Of a DNA stretch of 64,000 nucleotides, positions 15,030-23,677 are shown piece after piece. The DNA is from Promethearchaeota archaeon. Its GTDB lineage: Archaea > Asgardarchaeota > Lokiarchaeia > Sigyniarchaeales > SOKP01. Position numbers and translations under genes: made by a program. Below the pieces are notes generated by a model. The model was given only the letters and a program-made list of their open reading frames with translations. It did no database searches and was not told the origin of the DNA. Numbering within the stretch: the stretch's first letter is position 1; every line of letters starts with the position of its first letter. The stretch covers positions 32,001 through 96,000 of the forward strand of contig JAEOTR010000016.1 in the NCBI GenBank assembly GCA_016839705.1, written 5' to 3'.

Positions 15030-16166
15030 TTAATATTTTGAAGGAGTTTTAGATTTTATTTTTTGTTTTGGGATGCCCTTTAACTTTCTTAACTCTTTTT
15101 CAAAATTTCTTTTTTCATTAAGAAATCTCTGTTTGTCTTTCTCTAATTTTTCCCTTTCCCGTTTTATTGTACTTTTATCGTTAGATAAGTCTAATTTCTC
15201 TCTTTCTAAACGTCTGAGGTCAATATTTAACCTTTTGAATTTTTCTTCTAATGGGGGTATTTTTTCAGATATGGAGTAGAATTTATTTTCAGATTTAGGA
15301 ATCTTACTTTCTAATTCTTTCATTCTTACCTCTTGTTGTCTTTTTCTGCTTTCAAGACTTTTTACATCATTTTCCACTTTATTCCTATATTTTCTTAGAT
15401 CTTCCTTTTTCTTATCAATCTCTCGGCCTTTCAGGTTTAGTTCATCTTTTTGATAACGTAATTTCTCTCGATTTTCTTTTAGCTTACTTTTTTCATCAGA
15501 AATCCTGTTTTTTTCATCAACTAACTCCCTCTTTAAGTTATTCACTTCTCGATTGAGGGTATCTCTTTCTTTAGTTAAATATTTAATTTCATTTCTTAAA
15601 TCTTCTAATTTATGCTCTAGATCTTCGTTAGTCTTCTCAAGCGCACTCTTTCTTCTTTCCATCCCAGGTATCTTCGTTTTTATATCCTTAAATTGGTTTT
15701 CAATCCTCTGTTTTTCTTGGTCTATTGAATCTTTTTCATTTCCTAACTCATCTCTAAGCTTATCTAACCTTTTCTGAAATCCCTCTAATTGAGCTTTCCT
15801 TTGATTTAATCTATCGTTTTCTTCTCTTTTTTTATCTTTAAATTGTTGTTCTCTTGCATCTAACTCAATTTTTTGTTTTTCTAAGTCATTTTTTGTTTTT
15901 TTAAGACTGTTCTGAATGATATCCCTTTTTTCACGAAGATTTTTTAGTTCAATTTCTTCCGTTTTCCGCTTTTTTTCAAGATCTTCTATATTTTCTCTGT
16001 AATTCTCAATTTGGGTAATGAAATTTTCCCATTCACCCTTTTCTTTATTAAGTTTTATTCTTTCCTTCTTAATCTTTTTTAACAAATTTTTATCAGCAAT
16101 CATGTCACCCTCGTCGTCGGGAGTTTTTTCTCGAATTTGATGTTTGGGAATAGGTTTATCATTCAT
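15030..16166 (-). CDS. Long K/E-rich coiled-coil protein
   Basis: About 330 aa of heptad-like K/E/R/L composition with no globular domain. Confidence 0.8.
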   Translation of the reverse strand: MNDKPIPKHQIREKTPDDEGDMIADKNLLKKIKKERIKLNKEKGEWENFITQIENYRENIEDLEKKRKTEEIELKNLREKRDIIQNSLKKTKNDLEKQKIELDAREQQFKDKKREENDRLNQRKAQLEGFQKRLDKLRDELGNEKDSIDQEKQRIENQFKDIKTKIPGMERRKSALEKTNEDLEHKLEDLRNEIKYLTKERDTLNREVNNLKRELVDEKNRISDEKSKLKENREKLRYQKDELNLKGREIDKKKEDLRKYRNKVENDVKSLESRKRQQEVRMKELESKIPKSENKFYSISEKIPPLEEKFKRLNIDLRRLEREKLDLSNDKSTIKREREKLEKDKQRFLNEKRNFEKELRKLKGIPKQKIKSKTPSKY

Positions 16167-16376: not shown

Positions 16377-16769
16377 ATGGGATTTGACAATGAATATGAG
16401 GAGGGTTTAGAATTTGATGAAGATTTGGAAGAAGATTTAGATGATAAGTTGGATGAAATCCCCTCAGAAATTCCTAGCAAAGATATTAATTCTAAAACCC
16501 CCATCCCAAGGGCTACTTCTGAAGGAAAAAAAATTTCTGTTTACTTTATTTCAACCATCGGACCCGAGAAAAAGCAAAAATTGCTTATTAATAGTGGAAA
16601 TCTTGTTGGAGATATTAAGCAGACAGTAGCAAACTTATTCGCTTTAGATCCAGCTGACTTCTATTTGTCAGCACTAGGGATCACCATGGATGAACAAAAT
16701 CCTTTGAAAGAATATGAAGTAGATGATGGAGACGACATACTTTTAATCCCGGCTAGTATTGCAGGATAA
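16377..16769 (+). CDS. Ubiquitin-like modifier paralogue A (acidic N-tail, ends ...IPASIAG)
   Basis: Beta-grasp pattern (VGDIKQTV...LSALGITM...LKEYEVDDGDDILLIP), close paralogue of 19347..19688, terminal Gly. Confidence 0.85.
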   Translation: MGFDNEYEEGLEFDEDLEEDLDDKLDEIPSEIPSKDINSKTPIPRATSEGKKISVYFISTIGPEKKQKLLINSGNLVGDIKQTVANLFALDPADFYLSALGITMDEQNPLKEYEVDDGDDILLIPASIAG

Positions 16770-16787: not shown

Positions 16788-17582
16788 TTAATTATTCCTT
16801 TTTCTCGATGGAATCAGAGCAATTTCATCATCATCATCAATATCATAGTTTTGGATTTGCTTATCTTCAGATAGTAAAATTCCCCCTGAAGATAGAAGAA
16901 ATCCCTCCAATTCATAATTAAATAGTACTCCCACTCTTTTTTTAACTGTACTAATTAATTCAGTTGTATCAACAATGATCAACTTAGTAATCTCGCCTGG
17001 TTCAACTAGGGATCTAATGTACACACGGATCTGATCCTTGAGATTAATTTTATTTTTAGGTGGTATATAAAATATTTCCTCATCAGTTTGATCTCGATTC
17101 TTAAGCATATTATCGATTAATGCTTTTCGTTCATCCACATCAAAATAGAGCATTTCTCTAATAAAAAGGATTTTGTCAAGCTTTGATAATCCAAGGTTGT
17201 TTATTTTTCCTAATTCTTCCTTACTAAAAACTGAAAAAATATATTTGCTGATTATTGGAGAATCCTCATAAGATTCATTTGAATCAAGATATTCTTCAAT
17301 TGAAGGCAAAACCTCAAGATATTCATCGATAACATTCTCATCTATCCTATTGAAAGACTTAGTTTTCGGTGAAATTTTCTTATCTCTTATTTTATCATGT
17401 TGATGACCTGTCGATTGGATAACGGTATAGATTGTGCTAGTAGAGAGAACTGCAACACTCCCAATTGTTAGAATAAGAAATAATGGGGTGTTGTTTACCC
17501 CAAACAGGAAATAACTTACGTAAATCAACACAAAAATAGTATAAAGGGTTATAACGCTTAATGTTCTATATTTTTTCTTCAT
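16788..17582 (-). CDS. Membrane protein (2 N-terminal TM) with C-terminal ubiquitin-like domain
   Basis: Two hydrophobic segments, then a C-terminal domain that aligns with both Ubl paralogues (PGE, LSSGG, YDIDDDDEIALIP) but ends SRKRNN with no Gly. Confidence 0.8.
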   Translation of the reverse strand: MKKKYRTLSVITLYTIFVLIYVSYFLFGVNNTPLFLILTIGSVAVLSTSTIYTVIQSTGHQHDKIRDKKISPKTKSFNRIDENVIDEYLEVLPSIEEYLDSNESYEDSPIISKYIFSVFSKEELGKINNLGLSKLDKILFIREMLYFDVDERKALIDNMLKNRDQTDEEIFYIPPKNKINLKDQIRVYIRSLVEPGEITKLIIVDTTELISTVKKRVGVLFNYELEGFLLSSGGILLSEDKQIQNYDIDDDDEIALIPSRKRNN

Positions 17583-17667
17583 AATTTTTTAATAAATTTG
17601 TTGGTCTAATTTTCAAATAAATAACTTAAAATATAAATTCCATTGGAATAAAATTGGAGTTTTTTTT

Positions 17668-18339
17668 TCAATCACCTTGAATTAACTTCCTAACCTTATT
17701 ATACTTCTTAATATCTAATTTGAATAATATTCGATTTTTATCTTTCTCAGTTTCTAATAATTTTAGATTTTCTAGAATATTGACATATTTTTTTATAGTG
17801 TTGTGATTTTTTTTCATACCATTTGCTATTTCAGTGATTTTAAATGGCTTATCTTCATTGGTTAGGAATTCTATTAATTTTAGAACAATATCTTTATTCA
17901 AATAATAATAAAACTTATCCAACTTTGGATTTGAATCATATTCAAAGAAAATCCGATGGTTATTGAGTTTTTCTGACCTGACAAATTTAAATTTTTCTAG
18001 ACAAGAAAGGTGCCATAGTGCTTGATTACTTCCGATCTTAAGAGTTTTCATTATTTCATTAATATTAGACGGATTTTTTTTTATGTAATTATAAATCTCA
18101 TTCCTTTTTGGATGTTCAATGATATTATTCTTCATTAACCGAGTTCCAGGGATGATTATTTTCTTTTTTATCAATGATTTTATTATTAACTCAATTTTAT
18201 TTCGGTTTAAATTAGGATTTAACCTTACCCTGTTACTTATAAATTCTATTATATCAGTGATCGAAAAGAATGTTTTTTTTGTTAGATATTCTTTTACTAA
18301 GCCAAGAACAATAGATTCTAAATTATCCAAGGAACTCAT
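17668..18339 (-). CDS. Multi winged-helix (ArsR-like) DNA-binding protein
   Basis: RNEIYNYIKKNP..INEI...WHLSCLEK and ITEIA....HNTIKKYVNILEN wHTH repeats. Confidence 0.8.
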   Translation of the reverse strand: MSSLDNLESIVLGLVKEYLTKKTFFSITDIIEFISNRVRLNPNLNRNKIELIIKSLIKKKIIIPGTRLMKNNIIEHPKRNEIYNYIKKNPSNINEIMKTLKIGSNQALWHLSCLEKFKFVRSEKLNNHRIFFEYDSNPKLDKFYYYLNKDIVLKLIEFLTNEDKPFKITEIANGMKKNHNTIKKYVNILENLKLLETEKDKNRILFKLDIKKYNKVRKLIQGD

Positions 18340-18602
18340 AAGCCACTTTTAGTTTTTCGTTTCAATATCTTGTTAATACAGTGTAATACTCTCTCTATAA
18401 CAATAGTAAATATATAATATATATTAATAGGCATTCATACAATTTATAATATCATTTCTTTCACCCCCTATCGTATTTTTTTGCAACTATAAAGCTATTG
18501 ATCGCATTTCCTGCTTTACTTTTGCTTTATGAAAAAAGTTTAAATATATATTCAGTAATGTAGTAAAATAATCAATATTTAATCTGTAAAAAGTAATGAA
18601 TT

Positions 18603-19120
18603 ATGGCGAATGGGAAAGGTTTAACCTATTTAGGATTGATTTTAAGATTAATCGGTGCGGGTTTGGGCGGATATGTATTTTTTGATTATATTTAGCTCCA
18701 CTATTAGGATTTGGAGACCCTCCTGCAGAAGGTTCTGAAATAAATTCATACTACGTAGAAACCTACCAAGCAACCCTCACCCTACCTGATACATATGAAT
18801 CCCTTGATGGAATGATAATTTCATTTAATACAACCAAAACAGTTAACTTACACGTATTATATACTGGTTATGTAAGGATTATGACAACCCTTGGATTATA
18901 TGCTCAAATAAAAATCCTTCTTAATAGTACCATATTAACAACTAATCAATATTATGTAGAGGAGATTGGTTTTGTCGTTCAAGAACGATTTGCTGTTAAC
19001 ATGTAAAATTATATCTCTGCGCTACCTCCAGGAAATTATAATGTAACAGTATTAGGGATGTCCGATGATACTTCAACAAGTTTTTTTCAGAACTCACTCT
19101 ATATACAAATTCATACTTAA
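18603..19120 (+). pseudogene. Pseudogene of a signal-anchored beta-rich protein
   Basis: ATG 18603 MANGKGLTYLGLILRLIGAGLGGYVFFDYI, then a -1 frameshift near 18692. Continues LAPLLGFGDP... through the track ORF 18812..19006, past an internal TAA (19004), to ...NSLYIQIHT* at 19120. Confidence 0.75.
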
Positions 19121-19346
19121 ATAATTAATTAATTCAAATTCCTCATTTTTTTTACCTCTATTAATAGTTCTTTATACTTTCCTGAAGATTTATTATCTTC
19201 TTTCTCATATGGGATCATGATACTTTTTTTTTAAATGAAAGAAAAACTACAATTTTATGCCAATTGATTTTATAATACCATTTTAACTCAATTTTATTAG
19301 GTTTTTAATAAAAAAATAAAAAAATAAAAAATTGGAAGTGATGTGT

Positions 19347-19688
19347 ATGAGTTTTGAAGATGAGTTTGATGAGGATTTAGGTGGGGAGAGACCTGTAAAT
19401 TCTAAGACCCCTTCATCTAAAACCCCTTCAGCAGGAAGAAAATTGACATTGTATTTTATGTCAACCATAGGCCCTGGCGAGAAGAAAGAAAAATTAACAG
19501 TGAATGACGGAAATTGCGTTGAGGATATAAAGCAGACATTAGGAAATTTATATGGACTTGATCCTAATGATTTTCATTTATCTTCTGGCGGAGTTACGAT
19601 GGATGAAAATAGCTCATTAAAGGATTACCATGTGAGCGATGGAGACGACATTCTTATGATTCCCGCGAGCACTGCCGGGAAAGCTTAA
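19347..19688 (+). CDS. Ubiquitin-like modifier paralogue B, precursor form (...IPASTAG-KA)
   Basis: Beta-grasp pattern; first gene of the Ubl-E1-E2-JAMM-RING run; ATG 19347 (or 19341) preferred over TTG 19332. Confidence 0.88.
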   Translation: MSFEDEFDEDLGGERPVNSKTPSSKTPSAGRKLTLYFMSTIGPGEKKEKLTVNDGNCVEDIKQTLGNLYGLDPNDFHLSSGGVTMDENSSLKDYHVSDGDDILMIPASTAGKA

Positions 19689-19761: not shown

Positions 19762-20997
19762 ATGGTAATACTTATGGATAAGAATTCAGAATTTTTCGGA
19801 AAAGAGTTATCAGTGGAAGAGAGAAGTTTGTATGACCGTCAATTTCGTCTCGAGGGATGGTCTCAGAAATTGGTAAAAAATTCGAGGATATTAATTGCAG
19901 GCGTCGGTGGTTTAGGGTGTGAAATTGCTAAAAATCTATCGATGCTTGGTATCGGTCACTTAGATCTCGTTGATTTGGATATTATTGAACATTCTAATTT
20001 AAACCGTCAAATTCTTTTTGCGGGGGCAAAGATCGGAGAACCTAAAGCGGTTGTTGCAGCAAGAAAACTTAAGGACATTAATCCTAATATAGCAGTTAAA
20101 GGTTATCACACCTCTTTAGAGCGATTAAATCCCGCAATCTATCAAGCCGCTGATGTAATAATTGGAGGTCTTGATTCGATGAATACCCGTCTAAACTTGA
20201 ATGCTCAATGTATTAGGTTTAAAATCCCTCTTGTCGATGGAGGTGTATCTGGATATCACGGTCATGTATACACAATCTTTCCTTATCAAAATGCCTGTTA
20301 TGAGTGCAATCCCTTACCCGTCGTAGAGGGTGATGACATGGCGGCTTGTACAGTAGTAGGAATTCCTCGAAAAAGAATCCATTGTGTCTTTAAAGGAGAC
20401 ATGGCATTTAAAGAAAAACTTGATAGAGGTCCCAATCCTAAAAATGTAAATGATATCAAATTCATTCAAAAGGTTGCAAATGAATTAGTAAATAAACATA
20501 ATTTCTTACCTGAATATACGGTAGATGATATTGTAAGAATAATTGATAGACATGATCCGGGAATAATTACGATTAATGCGGTTATTTCCGCCTTACAATC
20601 CCATGAAGCCGTGAAAATTCTCCATTGGAAAAAGGGTCATAAAGGGCTTGGAGAACCAATTCAAAATTATGTGGTCTATAATGGAATAACTATGAAATTT
20701 TATCATATTGAAAAAAAAAGAAATCCAGAATGTTCTCAGTGTGGAAAGCACGTTAGAAGAGTATCAATAAAATTGAACCCTCATTCACCATGCGAGAACA
20801 TAATCAAAATATTAACTAAAAATGGGTTTAAACCTGATCCAGATTCAGAACCAATTCTTACTTTACAAGATTTTAATGATATTAAGATGGTTGATTTAGA
20901 ACAGAATCCAATTGAAAATGGTTTAAGAAATTATGAATTTATAACCGCAGCAGGCTTCAAAGATGGGGAAATTTTTGTAACCTTAAAATTGAAATAA
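19762..20997 (+). CDS. Ubiquitin-activating enzyme E1 (ThiF adenylation domain with catalytic-Cys insert, UBA2/UBA3-like)
   Basis: YDRQFRL, GVGGLG, DLDIIEHSNLNRQ, Zn pairs CYEC/CSQC, catalytic-type ACTVVGIPRKRIHC. Confidence 0.93.
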   Translation: MVILMDKNSEFFGKELSVEERSLYDRQFRLEGWSQKLVKNSRILIAGVGGLGCEIAKNLSMLGIGHLDLVDLDIIEHSNLNRQILFAGAKIGEPKAVVAARKLKDINPNIAVKGYHTSLERLNPAIYQAADVIIGGLDSMNTRLNLNAQCIRFKIPLVDGGVSGYHGHVYTIFPYQNACYECNPLPVVEGDDMAACTVVGIPRKRIHCVFKGDMAFKEKLDRGPNPKNVNDIKFIQKVANELVNKHNFLPEYTVDDIVRIIDRHDPGIITINAVISALQSHEAVKILHWKKGHKGLGEPIQNYVVYNGITMKFYHIEKKRNPECSQCGKHVRRVSIKLNPHSPCENIIKILTKNGFKPDPDSEPILTLQDFNDIKMVDLEQNPIENGLRNYEFITAAGFKDGEIFVTLKLK

Positions 20998-21078: not shown

Positions 21079-21606
21079 ATGAGTATAAGAAGTAGTCGTA
21101 TTTCCCAAGATTTTGCAGGATTAAAAAAACTGTTAAAGACGGGTACTATAATTCAATTAAAACCATTTAATCCTAAAAAGAAGAGTATAGATCATTTAGC
21201 TATAACTATTAAAGGGCCAAAAGGCACTGTATATGCGGGAGGTGTGTTTAAATTAGAAATGAAATTCCCTTCCCAGTATCCTAGCCAACCCCCTTTCGTT
21301 AGAATGCATACTCCAATTTGGCATCCAAATTTTTGGCCAAAACCGACTGAATATAAGGGACAAAGAAATATATGTCTAGCTTTGGTAGATCCCTCTTTGG
21401 CGGGTAAAAAGGGTGGATGGAGTCCATCAAAAACAGCAGTGACAATTGTTCAAGCAATAATTGCAATGCTAAACACCCGTGGTAAATTTGTTAACCCAAC
21501 TGATGTTTTTAATAAAAAGGCAGCAATTGAAATGATGAAAAATCCTAAATTTTTCGAGAAAAAGGTTAAAAACTTAGTTAAAAAATATGCAAATACGAAA
21601 TGGTGA
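21079..21606 (+). CDS. Ubiquitin-conjugating enzyme E2 (UBC fold)
   Basis: GPKGTVYAGGVF, FPSQYPSQPP, WHPN, catalytic ICL, WSPS. Confidence 0.95.
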   Translation: MSIRSSRISQDFAGLKKLLKTGTIIQLKPFNPKKKSIDHLAITIKGPKGTVYAGGVFKLEMKFPSQYPSQPPFVRMHTPIWHPNFWPKPTEYKGQRNICLALVDPSLAGKKGGWSPSKTAVTIVQAIIAMLNTRGKFVNPTDVFNKKAAIEMMKNPKFFEKKVKNLVKKYANTKW

Positions 21607-22442
21607 TTTCGCTAATGGAAGAAAAAGAATCAGCTAACAGTTCAATTAAAGACGTAATAAAGCAGAAAATAAAAGAAAAAATAAAAAAGGAATTATTAGA
21701 TGAAATACGTGAAGAGCTTCAATTAGAAGAAGAAGAATTAACTGAAGAAATTATTTCAATGCTTACACAAAGAGTTTCTAACGGTCTAAATATAAAACAT
21801 TCGAAGGCGCCCATCGTTAATATTTTAGAAAAAAAAGTCATAGAACCTCAATTAGAGCAAGAAGCCCAAAAGGAAACCTACATTACAATAAAGGCAACTC
21901 TTAAAATAGCAAGTCACGCTATAAAATATGCTAATCCTAATATACCTAAATCAAACTGGATTGAAGTTATAGGTATTCTCGCTGGAAAAATAGATAAAAA
22001 GACTGGTTTACTAATAATTGAAGATGCATATCCTGTTGGACATGGCAATGCAATCCATGCAAAAATGGATGATAAGAGAAATCGTAGAACGGGTTTTATA
22101 AAAGCTTTTGAAATAATCAAGAAAAATAAATTAGATATTTGTGGGTGGTATCATTCTCATCCTTGCTATGGATGTTTTATGTCACCCGAAGATTTTGATA
22201 CTCAAGCGAGATATCAGAAATTATGGGATAAAGCCGTTGCACTTGTTATCGATCCGTGCCTTATTGATGGAACTTCAACAGGTTTTGAGATTTATCAGGC
22301 AGATTTGAAATCAAAAACTTTCTATCCTCTATTATATGGAATTAAAGGATCGTTAGATATCCGTATGCTACCCGACATTTTAGAATTTATGAATCCAATT
22401 ATTCAAGGGAAAGCGGCTTATTTAGAATATGATAAAGATTAA
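21600..22442 (+). CDS. JAMM/MPN+ isopeptidase (Rpn11/CSN5-like) with N-terminal charged helical extension
   Basis: EVIGILAG...GWYHSHPCYGCFMSPEDFDTQ...ALVIDP; overlaps the E2 stop. Confidence 0.93.
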   Translation: MVISLMEEKESANSSIKDVIKQKIKEKIKKELLDEIREELQLEEEELTEEIISMLTQRVSNGLNIKHSKAPIVNILEKKVIEPQLEQEAQKETYITIKATLKIASHAIKYANPNIPKSNWIEVIGILAGKIDKKTGLLIIEDAYPVGHGNAIHAKMDDKRNRRTGFIKAFEIIKKNKLDICGWYHSHPCYGCFMSPEDFDTQARYQKLWDKAVALVIDPCLIDGTSTGFEIYQADLKSKTFYPLLYGIKGSLDIRMLPDILEFMNPIIQGKAAYLEYDKD

Positions 22443-22471: not shown

Positions 22472-23677
22472 GTGGCTAAAACTAAGGTAATAATTTTACT
22501 GCTGATTGCATTTGCAATTATCGGCATAATACACGGTGCCATTCTAAATTCAGTTAATGTATTTGTAAGTTGGTTTTTAATAGGGATATGGTTAGTATTT
22601 ACATTTAAAGTTATAAAGAATATAAAGCAACATCGTGAATATCGTAGTCCACACAATACAGCATTTTTTACTATTGGTCCTGTTTTGATTGGAATTTTTT
22701 ATTCAATTTGGGGAAATTTTACAGGATTATTAGGAGAAAATCTCTTAATAAGCACAGATTTATATTTAAGTTGGTGGAGTATACTATTTGGGTTTCCATA
22801 TGTGTTTTATAGTTCAATCTCATTATACCGTTGTTTTAAAAAATACCGAGTAATTTATTTTGGGACAAAATCTGTAAATGCCCGTAAATTTGGCTATTTA
22901 TTAGGCATATCGGTTATATTTTTCATATCTATCTATTGGATTAGTTTCTATTCATTGATCGATTTTTATGAATCTCTTATAATACCACTTCATTTTTTAC
23001 TAGATCTTAATCTTCTAATACTGCTTGTGAGCACTATTCTAATAATAATTATTGCAGGATTATTTGGGTCACAGACTCAATTACCCCAATTAACAAGAGA
23101 TTATATAGCACAGCGTAGGAATAGATTAAACCAACTAACATCACCTAGAAGAAATAGTACACCTAATAGATATAGGGAAAGTGTTCGCAATACCACAAGG
23201 TCAAATCCAACACCTTCAGCTAGCACGGTAACCCGTACATCAAGATCAGTGAACCATTCATCCCGATCTACACCAACCGCACGAAGACGTTCTACAACTA
23301 CAAGAACTAAAACAAGTTCTCGAACTGTGAGTAGAGGGCCAACAGGGACACAGGTAAGAAAGAAACAGAGTACTAAAAAAATAACTAACTTTAATATATA
23401 TAAACCTAAAGCCGCGCGTTTATCATCTGAGGACTTTAAGTGTATTTTTTGCTTTAAATTACCAAAAATTCCTGAGGATAACGGTAGAGGTATAATTTTA
23501 TGTCCAAATTGTAGATACCCTGCTCATGCAGATGAATTTAAGGATTGGTTACAAAGTTCCAACCTCTGTTCTCGATGCAGTGCTCCTATTCCTACAACCT
23601 ATAAGAGAAATCCAAGAATAATACCGATTAAAACTTATTTAGTAATTGTAAAACATTTTATTGGCAATAAGAGATAA
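22472..23677 (+). CDS. Multi-pass membrane protein with C-terminal variant RING finger (putative E3 ligase)
   Basis: About 6 TM segments, an S/T/R-rich linker, then C-x2-C-x16-C-x2-C-x4-H-x2-E-x3-W-x6-C-x2-C. Confidence 0.8.
   Translation: MAKTKVIILLLIAFAIIGIIHGAILNSVNVFVSWFLIGIWLVFTFKVIKNIKQHREYRSPHNTAFFTIGPVLIGIFYSIWGNFTGLLGENLLISTDLYLSWWSILFGFPYVFYSSISLYRCFKKYRVIYFGTKSVNARKFGYLLGISVIFFISIYWISFYSLIDFYESLIIPLHFLLDLNLLILLVSTILIIIIAGLFGSQTQLPQLTRDYIAQRRNRLNQLTSPRRNSTPNRYRESVRNTTRSNPTPSASTVTRTSRSVNHSSRSTPTARRRSTTTRTKTSSRTVSRGPTGTQVRKKQSTKKITNFNIYKPKAARLSSEDFKCIFCFKLPKIPEDNGRGIILCPNCRYPAHADEFKDWLQSSNLCSRCSAPIPTTYKRNPRIIPIKTYLVIVKHFIGNKR

Follow-up and report, generated by a model that had tools for sequence, protein, structure and literature searches.

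A ubiquitin-like membrane protein that lacks a conjugatable end and is encoded next to a winged-helix regulator at a Lokiarchaeia tagging operon

The window analysed here, a whole stretch of 64,000 nucleotides of Lokiarchaeia DNA, holds an operon for a ubiquitin-like modifier, E1, E2, a JAMM protease and a RING-like protein. Beside it lies a gene for a membrane protein with a C-terminal ubiquitin-like (UBL) domain, here named TM-UBL. A sequence-only reading had proposed a membrane adaptor, receptor or decoy that recruits enzymes or the proteasome. Gene pairing, co-folding and a common promoter element argue for another best-supported function, in which the middle domain of TM-UBL would link it to the winged-helix regulator encoded next to it. 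Contacts of the UBL with E1, E2, JAMM or an AAA ATPase may still occur, as the input of the regulatory switch, and an adaptor role would be secondary. All evidence on this module is genomic or modelled; the architecture, topology, lack of a terminal Gly, gene pairing and common promoter element are read from the sequence itself.

Architecture and locus of the membrane protein

16788–17582, minus strand: TM-UBL gene, intact 264-aa ORF ending IPSRKRNN (transmembrane hairpin, predicted regulator-binding helical domain, non-conjugatable UBL)
17505–17561, minus strand: transmembrane helix TM1, residues 8–26 (hydropathy, AF2 model, conservation 0.67)
17415–17486, minus strand: transmembrane helix TM2, residues 33–56 (conservation 0.89)
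17088–17339, minus strand: cytoplasmic helical docking domain, residues 82–165 (separate fold model; C-terminal in Lokiarchaeia surface proteins too)
16791–17036, minus strand: ubiquitin-fold domain, residues 183–264, with a basic tail replacing Ala-Gly (Pfam, alignment, structure model)

A total of 392 homologues of the TM-UBL protein were retrieved. The two N-terminal membrane helices first read from the sequence agree with hydropathy maxima at residues 7–26 and 33–56 and with a helical hairpin (residues 2–26 and 32–57) in the AF2 model, where the outer loop is short, at only about six residues. Over 113 homologues, Lys and Arg averaged 3.6 before TM1, 0.5 in the loop and 8.6 after TM2. By this positive-inside charge pattern both the N-terminus and the UBL are predicted to be cytoplasmic and not extracellular. 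TM2 is the most conserved of the domain-sized segments; its inner half is rich in Ser, Thr and Gly and resembles the transmembrane helix of related surface proteins. TM1 is probably the descendant of the N-terminal signal or anchor helix of an ancestral surface protein.

The C-terminal domain was modelled with the strands and helix of a beta-grasp at residues 184–258, the fold that had been expected of it. Caldiarchaeum ubiquitin was its best PDB match (6fno, rmsd 1.8 Å), ubiquitin, ISG15 and NEDD8 were the top Foldseek matches (rmsd about 1.8 Å), and the Pfam ubiquitin family was matched as well (PF00240, E 2.6e-5). Residues 184–259 align with the two soluble modifiers of the locus at 36% (E 8e-12) and 29% (E 1e-13), a homology that places TM-UBL in the Lokiarchaeia Ala-Gly UBL family, as the sequence-only reading had it. 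In ubiquitin numbering, the terminal Ala-Gly of the modifiers falls where ubiquitin has Gly-Gly. In TM-UBL no Gly lies beyond the last UBL strand, and a conserved Ser-Arg-Lys is found at that place. Only one of 120 homologues ends in Gly; the commonest C-terminus is LIPSRK with zero to three further residues. Judged from these ends TM-UBL is not open to activation in the way of an ordinary tag and falls outside the conjugatable (type I) class, which bears out the earlier claim. A relationship to UFM1 was rejected, with no PF03671 match at the TM-UBL locus and none above the cut-off in the genome.

In a UBL tree the TM-UBL domains form a long-branched clade of their own (support 100/100), although the few columns and the missing outgroup leave the tree unable to tell which modifier gave rise to the domain. 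The long branch from the modifiers and the confinement to a single family would suit a decaying modifier duplicate, fused by accident to a membrane protein. Such decay is extremely improbable and largely refuted by conservation: the gene has its own conserved promoter, the orthologue-level match recurs across most genomes of the family (counts below), and UBL conservation is 0.81, on par with the docking domain, with many invariant columns. Because of the separate clade and the strong conservation, the UBL is judged to be a specialised domain rather than a decaying copy. Its loop and strand residues differ from those of the near-invariant modifiers. TM-UBL would represent the conversion of a prokaryotic modifier to an integral (type II) UBL domain.

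Proteins of the MUB/UBL3 type bring a ubiquitin fold without Gly-Gly to the membrane, where it regulates conjugation rather than tagging; they inhibit E2 directly, by binding to its backside and so blocking E1, and are anchored by C-terminal CaaX prenylation (PMC4996978). The earlier comparison with MUBs is sound for the fold, the membrane location and the absent Gly-Gly. It breaks down at the anchor, as TM-UBL has N-terminal transmembrane helices, a predicted regulator-binding domain and a basic C-terminus without Cys or CaaX. In Herp-type proteins (Herp, TMUB1, Dsc3) the UBL is N-terminal and the transmembrane helices are C-terminal, so the domain order of TM-UBL is the reverse of that in Herp/TMUB.

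The neighbouring genes in the window are as follows.

15030–16166, minus strand: coiled-coil gene, already divergent from the modifier in the ancestral locus (locus comparison)
16377–16769, plus strand: UBL1, second modifier, ending Ala-Gly, convergent with TM-UBL and without an upstream operator (sequence, matrix scan)
17668–18339, minus strand: triple winged-helix regulator, predicted partner, with N-domain 1–66, HTH1 67–135 and HTH2 136–215 (profile matches, gene pairing, co-fold)
19347–19688, plus strand: UBL2, soluble modifier (Ala-Gly plus Lys-Ala here), first operon gene (sequence, Pfam)
19762–20997, plus strand: E1, ThiF family (domain match)
21079–21606, plus strand: E2, UQ_con (domain match)
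21600–22442, plus strand: JAMM protease (domain match)
22472–23677, plus strand: multi-pass membrane protein with a RING-like C-terminus (weak zf-RING match, E 0.12)

Of 127 genomes sampled from the host's Lokiarchaeia family, 86 gave an orthologue-level TM-UBL match, spread over four genera; 24 genomes of other Lokiarchaeia families gave none. The longer loci mostly consist of the coiled-coil gene, UBL1, TM-UBL and the winged-helix gene, followed by the divergent UBL2-E1-E2-JAMM-RING genes. Relatives without TM-UBL mostly show the coiled-coil gene, a modifier and E1, and 13 loci of other genera and families have a modifier-E1 operon without TM-UBL. The simplest history would be one insertion of the regulator and the membrane gene, with duplication of the modifier.

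Ubiquitin-E1-E2-RING-Rpn11 operons of Caldiarchaeum and Asgards contain the same enzyme classes, as far as the passages on them go; here, the modifiers end in Ala-Gly and the RING-like protein is multi-pass. Those passages mention neither a regulator nor TM-UBL (PMC6043591, PMC9192718, bioRxiv 2023.07.25.550441). The wider literature search, the Asgard ubiquitin passages included, gave no description of TM-UBL, no published account of the control of an archaeal ubiquitin-type operon and no mention of the term COG3398.

Between the regulator and UBL2, the plus strand of the window carries what is left of a small-protein gene broken by frameshifts (18603–19120; pieces 18600–18695, 18686–19006 and 19007–19120), whose product begins with a hydrophobic helix. 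This remnant widens the gap to about 1 kb, compared to about 275 bp in relatives. In one further locus a 222-aa RING-only gene lies directly 3' of UBL2, with E1, E2 and JAMM not nearby (L083:10634-11302).

The docking domain and its predicted partner

Between the hairpin and the UBL, the sequence-only reading had seen an acidic helical linker. This part is no spacer: residues 82–165 form a conserved domain that folds alone with a pLDDT of 86. The domain is also C-terminal in dozens of single-pass Lokiarchaeia surface proteins of about 400–2500 aa, where it follows the last transmembrane helix, sometimes in two copies, while the outer domains vary (a beta-propeller, for example). This position independently supports the cytoplasmic assignment of the docking domain. 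The likeness suggests that TM-UBL is such a receptor minus its outer domain, plus an added UBL. No consistent Pfam family, PDB sequence match or Atlas cluster match (TM at most 0.41) was found for the domain, and VIA structure comparison gave generic three-helix bundles only (Z at most 5.1), blanks which do not amount to a new fold. A query with residues 30–170 had found no longer proteins; genome and profile searches did, so this first blank reflects low sensitivity.

Stand-alone genes of 82–96 aa that encode the docking domain alone were seen at seven loci (L079, L138–L143) and are possible soluble anti-regulators. Weak matches to the domain (E about 1e-6) were present in surface proteins of 1350–1556 aa from another Asgard class, in three genomes of 1.3–1.4 Mb (L128–L130). 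No regulator adjoined these weak matches and they were left out of the counts.

The regulator gave profile matches of the ArsR/HTH_5/HVO_0163 type and a match to the SdpR model that stays below threshold (36 bits, cut-off 100; E 4.5e-9). Tandem winged helices also make up the ESCRT-II subunits, and a linkage of ubiquitin with ESCRT genes exists in Asgards (PMC9192718). On these grounds the winged-helix protein could be pictured as an ESCRT-II-like membrane scaffold, linked by TM-UBL to UBL-tagged cargo. This is very improbable, given that ESCRT families are absent from the profile matches, that no ESCRT gene occurs in the region examined around TM-UBL, and that a promoter element travels with the module, as described below.

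The pairing of the two genes is regular. A same-strand winged-helix homologue was located within 500 bp at all 43 distinct TM-UBL loci, always directly upstream of TM-UBL, and at 45 of 61 UBL-free tail loci; in nine of the 16 UBL-free misses the locus is cut by a contig end. The host genome encodes only about six regulators of the triple winged-helix type. Its only other tail match, a weak one, is directly followed by a winged-helix homologue. Two other winged-helix homologues of the host are fused to transmembrane helices and are without the N-domain, direct fusions that we read as a Rosetta-stone pattern. At several loci, genes with the N-domain and HTH1 only adjoin those of surface proteins. 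Tail and regulator gave mirror-tree correlations of 0.6–0.7 in UBL-free pairs; they were not used as evidence, because co-duplication explains them. The coupling of many Lokiarchaeia surface proteins to transcription factors appears to run through this domain, which has no Pfam family, and the pairs may constitute a transmembrane signalling route in archaeal relatives of eukaryotes.

The second tail of the host belongs to a six-TM protein (G000:C82:22740-21163), with the winged-helix homologue at 21161-20268, a polytopic version of the module. This type of pair recurs at L132–L134, L136 and L137. At L071, L073, L076, L089, L092 and L098 the regulator is split, and an N-domain-HTH1 gene lies directly 5' of a large surface protein gene, and in some loci of this set a separate HTH-bearing gene was seen past the surface protein gene.

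When the tail of TM-UBL and the regulator were co-folded, an ipSAE of 0.77 was obtained, with 0.00 for the best control; in a benchmark 58 of 80 solved pairs scored this high, as did two of 110 mismatched ones, a rough guide here because the alignments were our own. At least 94% of the contacts are common to the runs, and the pLDDT of the partners is at least 86. The closest modelled contacts are those of tail residues 115–118 with regulator residues 24–26 and 62–65. On the regulator the modelled interface comprises the N-domain and HTH1 residues 104–117, and the invariant F140 of the tail packs on the invariant W109. Residues 104–117 form the HTH1 recognition helix, whose face we take to be the one that contacts DNA in ArsR-type proteins. 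The model supports a tail that binds the regulator N-domain and covers the recognition helix, and because of this occlusion the regulator would be inhibited when bound. The exposed face of the HTH1 helix is hydrophobic (L108, W109), however, and may be a dedicated docking surface instead of a DNA reader, in which case binding of the tail need not inhibit the regulator.

A hydrophobic face of this kind looks suited to protein binding and would fit a Notch-like release, in which TM2 is cut in the membrane, the freed tail together with the regulator is the active form, and the UBL sets the lifetime of the complex. Substrates of intramembrane proteases have small polar residues in the inner half of the transmembrane helix. 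Such residues are conserved in TM2 and in the helices of the related surface proteins, and M50 and rhomboid proteases are encoded in the host genome. Against this, the face of HTH1 that canonically contacts DNA is buried in the model, presenilin/SPP family genes were not found in the 93% complete host genome, and TM-UBL has no ectodomain to shed. We consider a co-activator of this type quite unlikely and prefer an inhibitory capture of the regulator.

A putative operator at two promoters

17631–17663, minus strand: putative operator and TATA box of the TM-UBL gene (top genome match, score 42; cross-validation)
19243–19275, plus strand: putative operator and TATA box of the modifier-E1-E2-JAMM-RING operon (second genome match, score 32)

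When the divergent promoters of 34 genomes were aligned, a conserved block stood out directly before the UBL2 TATA box, and the block is found about 80 bp before the start of TM-UBL. It is a direct repeat, (C/T)T(C/T)CAA ... TTCCAA, with a spacing of about 11 bp, and this distance of one helical turn suits a tandem-HTH protein. A general repeat search in the local intergenic DNA was uninformative, as this DNA is AT-rich. The two sites were the best in a scan of the genome, where no shuffled control exceeded 21. A matrix built from the UBL2 promoters only exceeded the 99th percentile of the shuffles at 41 of 43 TM-UBL promoters, versus two of 37 UBL1 promoters.

The operator was also seen upstream of E2 in two loci with a broken operon, of the coiled-coil gene in two loci of a single genus, and of several receptor/regulator modules that have no UBL. 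It was absent at all 13 modifier-E1 operons without the module. Since it recurs with the module and is missing without it, the element travels with the regulator and not with the UBL genes, and it is ascribed to the winged-helix protein, as a putative operator, by this co-occurrence. The 43 loci and the presence or absence of the operator are not independent events, because the module probably entered the operon once. Genome-wide, the two sites and one degenerate site were the only convincing targets; the remaining matches were at control level and included no PAN, Cdc48 or proteasome regulon. The degenerate site (score 18) precedes a third copy of the modifier, N-terminally truncated and ending in Ala-Gly (G000:C43:25283-25519).

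The operator is conserved immediately upstream of BRE/TATA, as in TFB-RF1-like systems, and this position suggests an activator by analogy. TFB-RF1 (PF1089 system) of Pyrococcus furiosus has a binding site that directly precedes a weak BRE and a TATA box; its operon includes a membrane protein, and it activates this operon and a second one (PMC5937170). It differs in its palindromic site, in PF1089 with four transmembrane helices and in an ABC transporter target, and sequestration is not reported (PMC5937170). The likeness to the winged-helix regulator is one of site position and operon layout.

The common operator also bears on the recruitment proposed in the sequence-only reading. Here TM-UBL would mainly use its UBL to gather E2, JAMM, the membrane RING protein or an AAA ATPase/proteasome at the membrane, like a MUB, Herp or an ERAD adaptor, with regulator binding incidental or vestigial. 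The UBL matches the docking domain in conservation, is predicted to be cytoplasmic and would be co-regulated with an operon that holds a multi-pass RING-like protein, and non-conjugatable membrane UBLs (MUBs) can bind E2 (PMC4996978). Recruitment does not explain, however, why the regulator gene is present at every TM-UBL locus, why the interface residues are conserved and why the operator is common to both promoters, and the 13 operons without TM-UBL indicate that it is not a core subunit. As the main function it is thus unlikely, and control through the regulator remains the preferred reading.

A proposed feedback control of the tagging operon

Bacterial membrane anti-sigma factors such as RseA (sigma-E) and RsgI (sigma-I) hold an adjacently encoded factor by a cytoplasmic domain. 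Related proteins have interchangeable outer domains, release is proteolytic, and the factor drives its own inhibitor. TM-UBL likewise is a membrane protein that adjoins the gene of its predicted partner factor, and its surface-protein relatives vary in their outer domains. It differs in that its predicted partner is not a sigma factor but a triple winged-helix protein of archaea, the tail belongs to no known family, no outer domain is present, and the probable input is the cytoplasmic UBL. In Bacillus subtilis the membrane protein SdpI, with six transmembrane helices, sequesters the adjacent helix-turn-helix regulator SdpR, an autorepressor captured on ligand binding (PMC2910880). SdpI lacks the tail and the UBL of TM-UBL, and the site position here suggests an activator. 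By analogy TM-UBL may work like a membrane anti-factor of this kind (RseA, RsgI, SdpI), while being a member of none of those families.

We consider it likely that TM-UBL is a membrane anti-activator in a negative feedback control of the Ala-Gly ubiquitin-like operon. A two-gene module of a helical-tail membrane protein and a triple winged-helix factor would have been inserted into the operon in one Lokiarchaeia family, its membrane half having no outer sensor domain and carrying a copy of the operon's own modifier fold. The free regulator would be an activator of the TFB-recruiting type, acting on the promoters of the tagging operon and of TM-UBL. TM-UBL would capture it at the membrane, mask HTH1 and keep it inactive; as its own gene would be activated by the regulator, the negative loop would be closed.

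The UBL would be the input of this switch. In the least certain and speculative step, to which we give somewhat less than an even chance, it would act as a built-in uncleavable tag that competes with the real modifiers for a UBL reader. Candidate readers are PAN or Cdc48 with the proteasome (PAN and four Cdc48 are encoded in the host genome), JAMM and E1/E2. When modifiers are scarce, the reader would engage TM-UBL and bring about its removal; release of the activator would raise the output of tagging machinery, so that scarcity of the modifier would induce the operon. The UBL may not compete for the modifiers' reader at all, because of its divergent loop and strand residues. The whole can be described, with somewhat more doubt than confidence, as an archaeal 'ubiquitin-level thermostat'. 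A surface-receptor/regulator module would have been turned inward, its outer sensor swapped for an uncleavable modifier copy, and the load on the reader would set the lifetime of the anti-activator and the transcription of the tagging operon.

In the eukaryotic Spt23/Mga2, Nrf1, Rpn4 and SREBP systems, genes are controlled by feedback from the load on ubiquitin or the proteasome, the membrane serves as a holding site, and the factor itself is tethered or degraded. The resemblance of TM-UBL to these systems is one of proposed logic. As the fusion is confined to one Lokiarchaeia family, it would be a parallel invention, and it illustrates what Asgard cells can evolve rather than a eukaryotic inheritance. 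If true, the thermostat would be an independently invented prokaryotic counterpart of the Rpn4/Nrf1-type feedback, built on undescribed Lokiarchaeia transmembrane signalling pairs. The locus offers a candidate regulator, operator and inhibitor, all small and easy to express, which makes the proposal testable in vitro.

Other derivatives of the UBL family were encountered. Soluble proteins of 273–278 aa (L026:5621-6454 and L027–L031, P0123) have a roadblock/longin-like N-domain, assigned by eye, fused to a UBL; they gave no NCBIfam match, and most of their UBLs end in Ala-Gly, possibly a conjugatable domain fusion. A 365-aa protein (L193:1495-2592) is similar to these at its N-terminus and has a C-terminal UBL without Gly, which marks it as a second non-conjugatable derivative of the Ala-Gly family. 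Right after the RING-like gene, two tandem proteins with a CxxC-containing N-domain and an Ala-Gly UBL with a short extension were found (L192:931-1824, L194:1024-1791). In the host genome a separate 84-aa ubiquitin-like gene, located outside the TM-UBL locus, ends in Gly-Gly (L151:1471-1725; G000:C13).
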